Shown here: piece after piece, positions 52,521 through 52,777 of the stretch
Layout: each line of letters begins with the position of its first letter
Numbering within the stretch: position 1 is the first letter of the stretch
Assembly: GCF_030013205.1 (NCBI RefSeq)
Contig: NZ_CP122648.1
Origin: Escherichia coli
GTDB taxonomy: Bacteria > Pseudomonadota > Gammaproteobacteria > Enterobacterales > Enterobacteriaceae
DNA: 64,000 nucleotides
Direction: 5' to 3' (one strand)
Made by a program: the position numbers and the translations under genes
Notes under the pieces: generated by a model
What the model saw: the letters and a program-made list of their open reading frames with translations, nothing else
What the model was told of the DNA's origin: nothing
Databases searched by the model: none

Positions 52521-52777
52521 TTGACACTTTCCGGCTTAAGACCTTAACAAATCTTAACATCGCAGGTTGACACACTTGACACTTTTTCGCGAAAAACCTT
52601 ATCAAACCTTAGCATTTCTAAGCATGGCAACTTGACACTTTTCGCGATTTTTTCGGCTTTTTGACGTGGTAAATCTGGCGAAAGGCCAGTAATGGCGGGG
52701 CTTACAGCGAGGTTGACACTTTTTCGCGTTCAGAGTGTAAAGTGTCAACCTGGCAAGCTGCTCAACTTGACACTTTT
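52521..52777 (+). repeat. array of about 7 direct copies (plus one inverted) of TTGACACTTTTTCGCG-like motif
   Basis: Copies at about 52521, 52567, 52576, 52632, 52661 (degenerate TTGACG), 52713, 52766 and inverted GTGTCAA at 52742; irregular 45-80 bp spacing; immediately 3' of the HTH gene 52783..53310. Confidence 0.6.

Follow-up and report, generated by a model that had tools for sequence, protein, structure and literature searches.

Results

A cluster of short repeats abuts the stop codon of a 175-aa gene

The 64,000-nt stretch of Escherichia coli DNA analyzed here (contig NZ_CP122648.1 of assembly GCF_030013205.1; hereafter, the window) includes an integrated island of about 13.4 kb. Within this island, an array of short repeats (52492–52773) lies directly after a gene that encodes a 175-aa protein (52783–53310, minus strand). 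Read in the orientation of that gene, which is the minus strand, the array consists of 10 copies of the core aaaGTGT[C/A]AAcc, eight of them direct and two inverted. A preliminary description of this DNA had reported seven or eight copies of a 12–16-nt unit at this place. The clustering, the irregular spacing and the presence of inverted and degenerate copies are all borne out, as is the location next to the stop codon of a helix-turn-helix (HTH) gene: the last 16-nt unit (52767–52782) adjoins the stop codon (52783–52785) of the 175-aa open reading frame (ORF). The number and the length of the units had to be corrected. As the 16-mer TTGACACTTTTTCGCG is found in exact form only at positions 52576 and 52713 (with an 81% copy at 52767), the true repeat unit is a core of about 12 nt, GGTTGACACTTT. 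It is present at a total of 10 sites over 282 bp, which correspond to seven copies of TTGACAC, two TTTACAC variants and one degenerate copy.

Exact TTGACAC heptamers start on the plus strand at positions 52521, 52567, 52576, 52632, 52713 and 52767, and one is located on the minus strand at 52742–52748, that is, seven copies in 253 bp (six direct, one inverted). Both strands counted, the window contains only five further copies elsewhere. The 10-mer TTGACACTTT has six exact copies, every one within 52521–52776. The distances between the direct copies are 46, 9, 56, 81 and 54 bp. When the window was simulated 1000 times with a first-order Markov model, the largest TTGACAC cluster per 260 bp comprised one copy in 756 runs, two in 239 and three in five, compared with the seven copies observed.

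From its cargo-side edge toward the gene, the array is organized as follows, the single copies being given on the plus strand. It begins with a direct TTTACAC variant (52492–52498), read from the sequence. Copy 1 (52521–52527) is preceded by GG. Copies 2 and 3 form an overlapping pair 9 bp apart (52567–52582, TTGACACACTTGACAC) that is kept in E. coli 55989, and copy 3 is flanked by the palindrome TTTTTCGCGAAAAA (52583–52596), the equivalent of which in E. hormaechei is TTTTTGCGCAAAAA. Beside copy 4 (52632–52638) lies a conserved box (box 2, 52607–52631, CCTTAGCATTTCTAAGCATGGCAAC) that falls outside the heptamer motif and includes the inverted repeat CTTAG-N5-CTAAG; it is retained in E. coli and in loci L014, L105, L011 and L177 of our comparison, and in part in Serratia. 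The degenerate copy, TTGACGT, follows at 52661–52667. A second conserved box, G+C-rich (box 1, 52686–52712, CCAGTAATGGCGGGGCTTACAGCGAGG), precedes copy 5 (52713–52719) and is retained in L070, L014, L105 and L175, even where the neighboring heptamer has decayed. No counterpart of box 1 was found in phage contigs, the matches in IMG/VR being chance matches plus two more islands. Copy 5 is one arm of an inverted pair, the other arm being two adjacent copies of opposite orientation (52735–52748) which read GTGTAAA (52735–52741) and GTGTCAA (52742–52748) on the plus strand. Serratia and Pantoea likewise have an inverted pair near the gene end. Copy 6 (52767–52773) is 10 bp away from the stop codon.

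The G+C content of the array is 43–45%, without any A+T-rich unwinding region. Scanning of positions 52490–52780 on both strands did not reveal any sigma-70-like promoter despite seven perfect TTGACA hexamers. Tandem sigma-70 promoters are ruled out, as no -10 hexamer is called in the array; this agrees with the preliminary description, which had seen no convincing -10 hexamer after TTGACA. A structured RNA is likewise ruled out: no Rfam family matched the island, and the fold z-score (-3.2) is accounted for by the inverted repeats. A single match to the IHF-type sequence WATCAANNNNTTR, with one mismatch, is present at 52600; as 0.3 such matches are expected by chance, it is not significant.

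The array is linked to the DNA-binding domain across enterobacterial islands

The array is present in 165 of 5426 complete E. coli genomes (about 3%), the O104:H4 and 55989 lineage included, and also in Serratia, Pantoea, Enterobacter, Citrobacter and Rouxiella. Islands bearing it use other tRNA sites and carry other replicases, middle modules and cargo, and the array is always found directly after the 175-aa gene. Among 37 distinct arrays of the E. coli type, 65% of the heptamer positions are invariant vs. 32% of the other intergenic positions.

Eight loci were then retrieved by protein identity alone (33–63%). Their sources are Pantoea, Serratia, Rouxiella, two lineages of Enterobacter and three other genomes. 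In all eight, GTGT[C/A]AA is enriched within the 600 bp that follow the stop codon, with one to seven copies compared with a background of 0–0.2 per 600 bp elsewhere in the same loci; the locus with a single copy has a decayed appearance. The layout is kept as well: first a direct site, then one inverted site or a pair of them, next a direct site with a G+C-rich box (GCTGTAAGCCCCGCCRTTACTGG), a spacer, a direct site with GCTTAGAAATGCTAAGG, and more direct sites. The preliminary description had taken the repeats for iterated protein-binding sites, an interpretation that would fail if they were not conserved in homologous elements. A motif search across related islands shows that they are conserved together with the gene (8/8 loci), so that this objection falls, and the interpretation as a whole is supported in part.

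A second family, of 194 aa, shares only residues 1–42 with the 175-aa protein (hhalign probability 96%). It is also flanked by GTGT[CA]AA arrays, which in this case are located upstream of the gene. As the arrays lie on the opposite side of the gene in this family, the motif tracks the DNA-binding domain and not the gene position. We infer, and strongly so, that the 175-aa protein binds the array.

Members of the second family (190–194 aa, arrays upstream of the gene) were identified at L045 (8667–9491), L049, L050, L062 and L016. In a P2-like prophage, the L045 member occupies the Z/fun cargo position, with tail-fibre assembly genes on one side and sheath genes on the other. The L016 member follows a tape-measure-like gene at the end of a satellite-like element.

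Dense arrays are also present in DNA that lacks a homologue of the 175-aa protein. Unrelated viral contigs (L026, L076 and L083–L085) contain about 20 copies of GTGTCAA or GTGTAAA in 400 bp. Further dense-array viral contigs are L030, L043, L060, L069 and L086, and several of these arrays adjoin the 3′ ends of primase genes encoding proteins of about 740–800 aa. The primase-adjacent TTGACAC arrays are probably convergent origin iterons of other elements. Since dense arrays occur without the 175-aa homologue, the heptamer alone is not diagnostic.

In E. coli PCP06173 (L005, 9001–9142), the island has decayed: what is left of the module is part of the array and the small ORF that follows it, the 175-aa gene having been lost by deletion together with the proximal array half. 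IS1 and a broken integrase gene are nearby. In the pig E. coli ETEC4079 (NZ_CP122643.1), the source genome, to whose chromosome the window is 100% identical, three separate places match the 1.2-kb segment comprising the gene and the array; several islands with the same module therefore coexist in one cell.

The 175-aa protein combines a Nu1/Xis-like winged helix with a domain of its own

The 175-aa protein comprises a winged HTH (residues 1–43), a disordered linker (44–60) and an alpha/beta domain (61–172) which is restricted to its own small family. The first 41 residues are near-invariant among homologues, the recognition helix VSRQTVYxW being invariant, and the rest of the protein diverges. 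Its best sequence family is phrog_57 (5e-7, residues 1–42). In a control comparison, a lambdoid TerS matched phrog_57 at 4.7e-65, which identifies this family as that of lambda Nu1. The DNA-binding domain is a lambda-Nu1/Xis-like winged helix with a weak match to the Nu1 family.

Other searches with the 175-aa protein gave little. Phmmer against the PDB sequences (RppC included) retrieved nothing significant, and no significant match was obtained among the BFVD structures or in 50,697 phage genomes. Pfam yielded a weak HTH_17 match only and NCBIfam sub-threshold HTH matches only, with no Terminase hit in either; PADLOC returned one insignificant match (mad1, E 0.0068). A profile of the C-terminal domain, searched against 1.84 billion representatives, recovered only its own small family, and this domain has no informative structural or sequence relatives. 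Neither the protein family nor the array was found described in the searchable literature.

The island is organized as a phage satellite

The island is inserted at tRNA-Pro, between yejO and yejM. On the minus strand, its genes encode in order an integrase (int), an AlpA regulator, an Icd-like remnant, a DUF4222 protein, a RepA-type helicase, a ProQ/FinO protein and PerC, then a DUF2213 protein, a 205-aa protein, a 679-aa protein with a lytic-transglycosylase domain, and the 175-aa protein, after which come the array and a 59-aa ORF. The far junction is marked by a degenerate copy of the tRNA 3′-end at about 51477–51498. With int, AlpA next to it, a RepA helicase with its own origin, a size of about 13.4 kb and insertion at tRNA-Pro, the island is by its predicted organization a satellite of the Gram-negative phage-inducible chromosomal island (PICI) type. 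In every island examined, the phrog_1561 ORF, the cargo and att come after the 175-aa gene, which is the last regular gene of the operon. The cargo, which consists of variable defence genes (an AAA ATPase + DUF4435 pair, GapS1, Abi_2), begins right after the array.

The 59-aa ORF (52310–52489, minus strand) belongs to phrog_1561 and is homologous to the 93-aa ORF that follows cos2 in EcCICFT073, a PICI of E. coli. It is probably co-transcribed across the array. Proteins of this family end in a conserved ...W(K/R)KP..RR tail. Homologues come after the packaging slot in EcCICFT073 (L013, 3373–3654) as well as in the distant array islands L173, L174 and L176. The phrog_1561 ORF may be part of the same module as the array.

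Residues 1–501 of the 679-aa protein (53362–56083) are 88.6% identical to gp56 of 'Actinobacillus phage vB_Apl-pPE4', a myovirus record with a Rac-like, E. coli-type genome, in which gp56 sits between a 205-aa gene and baseplate genes. Judged from these similarities, the island seems to carry tail tape-measure-like and chaperone-like genes. Tail-type genes are also present in other array islands: L016 has a baseplate hub and tail-fibre assembly gene, and Pantoea L008 and Rouxiella L173 have Dit_like and PF18352. Between 56080 and 57415, two ORFs of 195 and 227 aa both match phrog_6216 (a 545-position profile; DUF2213, with weak similarity to prohead proteases). The profile's C-terminal part is matched by the upstream ORF and its middle part by the downstream one, which points to a permuted or split arrangement.

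The array occupies the place of a packaging site in a related island

Redirecting phage packaging (Rpp) proteins, which act with a private cosB, have been described in EcCICFT073 (Fillol-Salom et al., 2018, 2019; PMC6092414, PMC6739421). RppA of EcCICFT073 is the one PICI packaging redirector reported as experimentally proven, and both cos sites of EcCICFT073 have been shown to be functional (PMC6092414). The distal end of that island comprises, in order, PerC, capsid genes, cos1, rppA (144 aa), 280 bp with cos2, the 93-aa phrog_1561 ORF and att-proximal sequence. At its distal end, the island studied here has PerC, the middle module, the 175-aa gene, 293 bp with the array, the 59-aa phrog_1561 ORF and homologous att-proximal sequence. 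As the gene order matches, the array fills the slot of EcCICFT073 cos2 and the 175-aa gene that of rppA.

Both islands share a backbone of int, alpA, replicase and origin, PerC, the phrog_1561 ORF and the att-proximal sequence. As to the Rpp system itself, in both cases the protein is encoded by the last regular gene of the operon, its N-terminal 40 or so residues resemble the Nu1 domain equally weakly (RppA matches phrog_57 at 4e-8, N-terminus only, as does the 175-aa protein), and the adjacent non-coding slot holds the cis site. The differences are also clear. A lambda-type cosN/cosQ is next to rppA in EcCICFT073, whereas the array neither contains a cosN nor has one beside it; the array has 10 copies compared with a short cosB; the C-terminal fold is unlike, and no homology to RppA, RppB or RppC was detected beyond 28 residues, the number of columns that hhalign aligns between RppA and the 175-aa protein.

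Between rppA and cos2 of E. coli CFT073 (L013, 3100–3300), three copies of ATGTCCGGTT, two in one orientation and one in the other, flank the nicking sequence of cos2. Read by eye, they are arranged like R3, R2 and R1 of lambda.

In lambda, cosB comprises three sites in about 120 bp (R3, R2 and R1), bound by the winged helix of gpNu1 and bent by IHF, beside cosN and upstream of the Nu1 gene. Lambda and the island thus have in common short repeats of mixed orientation (one inverted in lambda, two here) that are bound, or here presumed to be bound, by a Nu1-type winged helix. The array differs from cosB in its 10 sites over 282 bp, its location downstream of the gene and the lack of an adjacent cosN. 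The nearest cosN-like sequence, at 51739–51748, is 770 bp away.

In Staphylococcus aureus pathogenicity islands (SaPIs), accessory genes lie between pac and the end of the island, where they can be shuffled by in-situ packaging (PMC12829572). The SaPI TerS and pac pair is comparable in that a satellite specificity protein has its recognition site by its own gene, with accessory genes up to the end of the island (PMC12829572). Unlike SaPI TerS, the 175-aa protein is not a recognizable TerS: neither a central oligomerisation domain nor a TerL-binding C-terminus was found in it, nor a terL gene next to its own. The module would work most like Rpp with its private cosB, or like a satellite TerS with its pac site, yet the missing features place it in neither group.

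A separate phiP27-type cos lies on the far side of the array

The cosN-like sequence mentioned above belongs to a separate packaging signal (51709–51753, minus strand), 45 nt that are identical to the annotated cos region of the Stx2e phage phiP27 and include the 10-nt cos sequence GGGGCGGGCG. Its presence suggests that the island may be packaged by cos phages of the phiP27/HK97 type (HNH-dependent). As the 30 conserved nt are found on the terS side of the phiP27 cut, packaging that starts at this cos would run away from the array, which is located on the cosQ side. The segment is rare, as only six of the 5426 E. coli genomes carry at least 80% of positions 51600–52310, and no cosN of the phiP27, lambda or P2 type was found in the related islands examined. 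The array must therefore work without the phiP27 cos in most islands. That the array is the cosB of this cos was considered and rejected, because it lies on the wrong side and because relatives have the array without that cos.

Discussion

The interpretation that we consider best, with a probability of roughly 45%, is that the array is the recognition array of a previously undescribed packaging-specificity protein, the 175-aa protein, in a PICI-type satellite. The mechanism that we hypothesize is the following. A helper phage would induce the island, and the last regular gene of the operon would yield the 175-aa protein. Its Nu1/Xis-type winged helix would bind the eight direct and two inverted aaaGTGT[C/A]AAcc sites, and a bent nucleoprotein complex of about 290 bp would form, in which a second factor may occupy the two non-heptamer boxes. 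This complex may recruit the helper terminase either by way of its private C-terminal domain or, as Rpp does, by pairing with the helper small terminase. Concatemers of the island, rather than helper DNA, would then become the packaging substrate, and packaging would run toward the attR end, over the variable cargo. Which phage acts as helper is likewise a hypothetical element of this model, as are terminase recruitment and packaging direction.

Besides clustering far beyond chance, the linkage of the array with the gene and with its DNA-binding domain, and the slot shared with EcCICFT073, two features of the islands argue for such a role. No Rpp homologue was found among about 50 array-bearing loci, and in minimal islands such as Serratia L010 there is nothing between PerC and the 175-aa gene. 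Since they have no known cosN, no Rpp and a minimal gene content, the module is the only candidate packaging determinant in the relatives. Moreover, cargo starts at the distal edge of the array, which matches the layout of accessory genes from pac to island end in SaPIs. A role in packaging recognition is the most economical interpretation of these data, all of them circumstantial.

Several observations weigh against it. The winged-helix fold is also that of excisionases, Cox and BldC-type regulators, so by itself it does not favor packaging. The 175-aa protein is without a terminase oligomerisation or TerL-binding region, and its similarity to Rpp over 28 residues has an E-value of 5e-4 and a probability of only 32%. 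There is neither a terL nor an HNH gene in the island, nor a recognizable cleavage site within the array, and the complete phiP27-type cos of the island could suffice alone. One member of the sister family is encoded in a P2-like prophage between tail-fibre and sheath genes, with no packaging link. Finally, no helper phage with the motif was found, the separate cos being the only match of this region to a phage, and the phage sharing the tape-measure-like gene has no heptamer cluster.

The alternative that survives best, and which we nevertheless deem unlikely, is that the array serves as an operator in regulation, with the 175-aa protein as a Cox/BldC/Xis-like regulator that polymerises head-to-tail and has no role in packaging. 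This regulator would silence, insulate or time transcription at the junction of the late operon, the small ORF and the cargo, or it would target helper genes in trans. Cox of P2 and BldC of Streptomyces are small single-domain Xis/MerR-like proteins (about 70–90 aa) that polymerise on direct repeats, and their sites overlap promoters or att arms. The 175-aa protein has an extra domain of 110 aa, and its array contains no promoter or att. No promoter-like site is present in the array or beside it on either strand; the array lies downstream of its gene, and at no promoter, in more than 50 islands; and the downstream cargo brings its own upstream region (340 bp in 55989). Ten sites and two unrelated conserved boxes over 290 bp far exceed the needs of known operators of this kind, and no excisionase or regulator family comes as close in sequence to the DNA-binding domain as Nu1 does.

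That the repeats are iterons, belonging to a replication origin or to a cis-acting replication enhancer like crr of satellite P4, appears very improbable. Irregularly spaced direct repeats do look like iterons, TTGACAC pairs are present at the 3′ ends of primase genes in the unrelated viral contigs L030, L043 and L086, and Pantoea L008 has a crr-like second cluster of iterons near the array position. This cluster, however, uses the origin iteron of that island and not the heptamer. Each island has its origin immediately downstream of its replicase: in the island of the window it corresponds to positions 58700–59110, which directly follow the RepA-type helicase gene (59114–60529) and contain TCCTCACTTTT iterons, oriented both ways, together with a stretch of 24–37% G+C. 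The iterons change with the replicase, being TCCTCACTTTT with the RepA helicase, CGGGATAT with DUF927 (E. coli and Serratia) and TTATCTACC with a P4-alpha-like primase (Pantoea). As the TTGACAC array stays unchanged across these three replicase types and has no A+T-rich unwinding region, it is not the replicase origin.

The second cluster in Pantoea stewartii L008 (10252–10373) consists of copies of the origin iteron GGTAGATAA, about 5 kb from the first and downstream of the heptamer array. Both clusters recall the ori/crr pair of P4, whose alpha-type primase is also present in the L008 island.

Excisionase (recombination-directionality) sites or a plasmid-type partition centromere, the latter a candidate of the preliminary description that did not hold, are hardly credible, as excisionase sites must lie in the att arm and about 1.0 kb separates the array from the att remnant here (2.8 kb in 55989), with cargo between; a canonical AlpA is encoded beside int; no ParA/ParM gene is present, and the element is an integrative one; and one genome has three places matching the gene-plus-array segment. 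Origin, promoter and att roles are excluded for the array.

Returning to packaging recognition, a more specific proposal would be that the 175-aa protein and its array constitute a third way for enterobacterial satellites to capture helper terminases, besides helper cos and Rpp, namely a cos-independent pac site made of 10 sites, on which a Nu1-type winged helix fused to a private domain would nucleate. We put this forward tentatively, as the odds are about two to one against it. If true, it would explain the mobilisation of many PICIs scored as lacking a packaging module, and it would fix the start point from which in-situ packaging carries and shuffles the defence cargo that begins exactly where the array ends distally. 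A further branch of the system would then be the sister family, which has the same DNA-binding domain and is present in other satellites and in a P2-like prophage.

Should the module be regulatory instead, it would still represent a conserved nucleoprotein site of unusual size, together with a protein family not characterised before. If it is a packaging determinant, it provides a defined and testable protein–DNA pair, a marker for a class of satellites and a predictor of which flanking genes are mobilised. The islands that carry the array, many of which have no recognizable packaging module, deliver anti-phage systems, among them an AAA ATPase + DUF4435 pair (the composition of PARIS), GapS1 and Abi.
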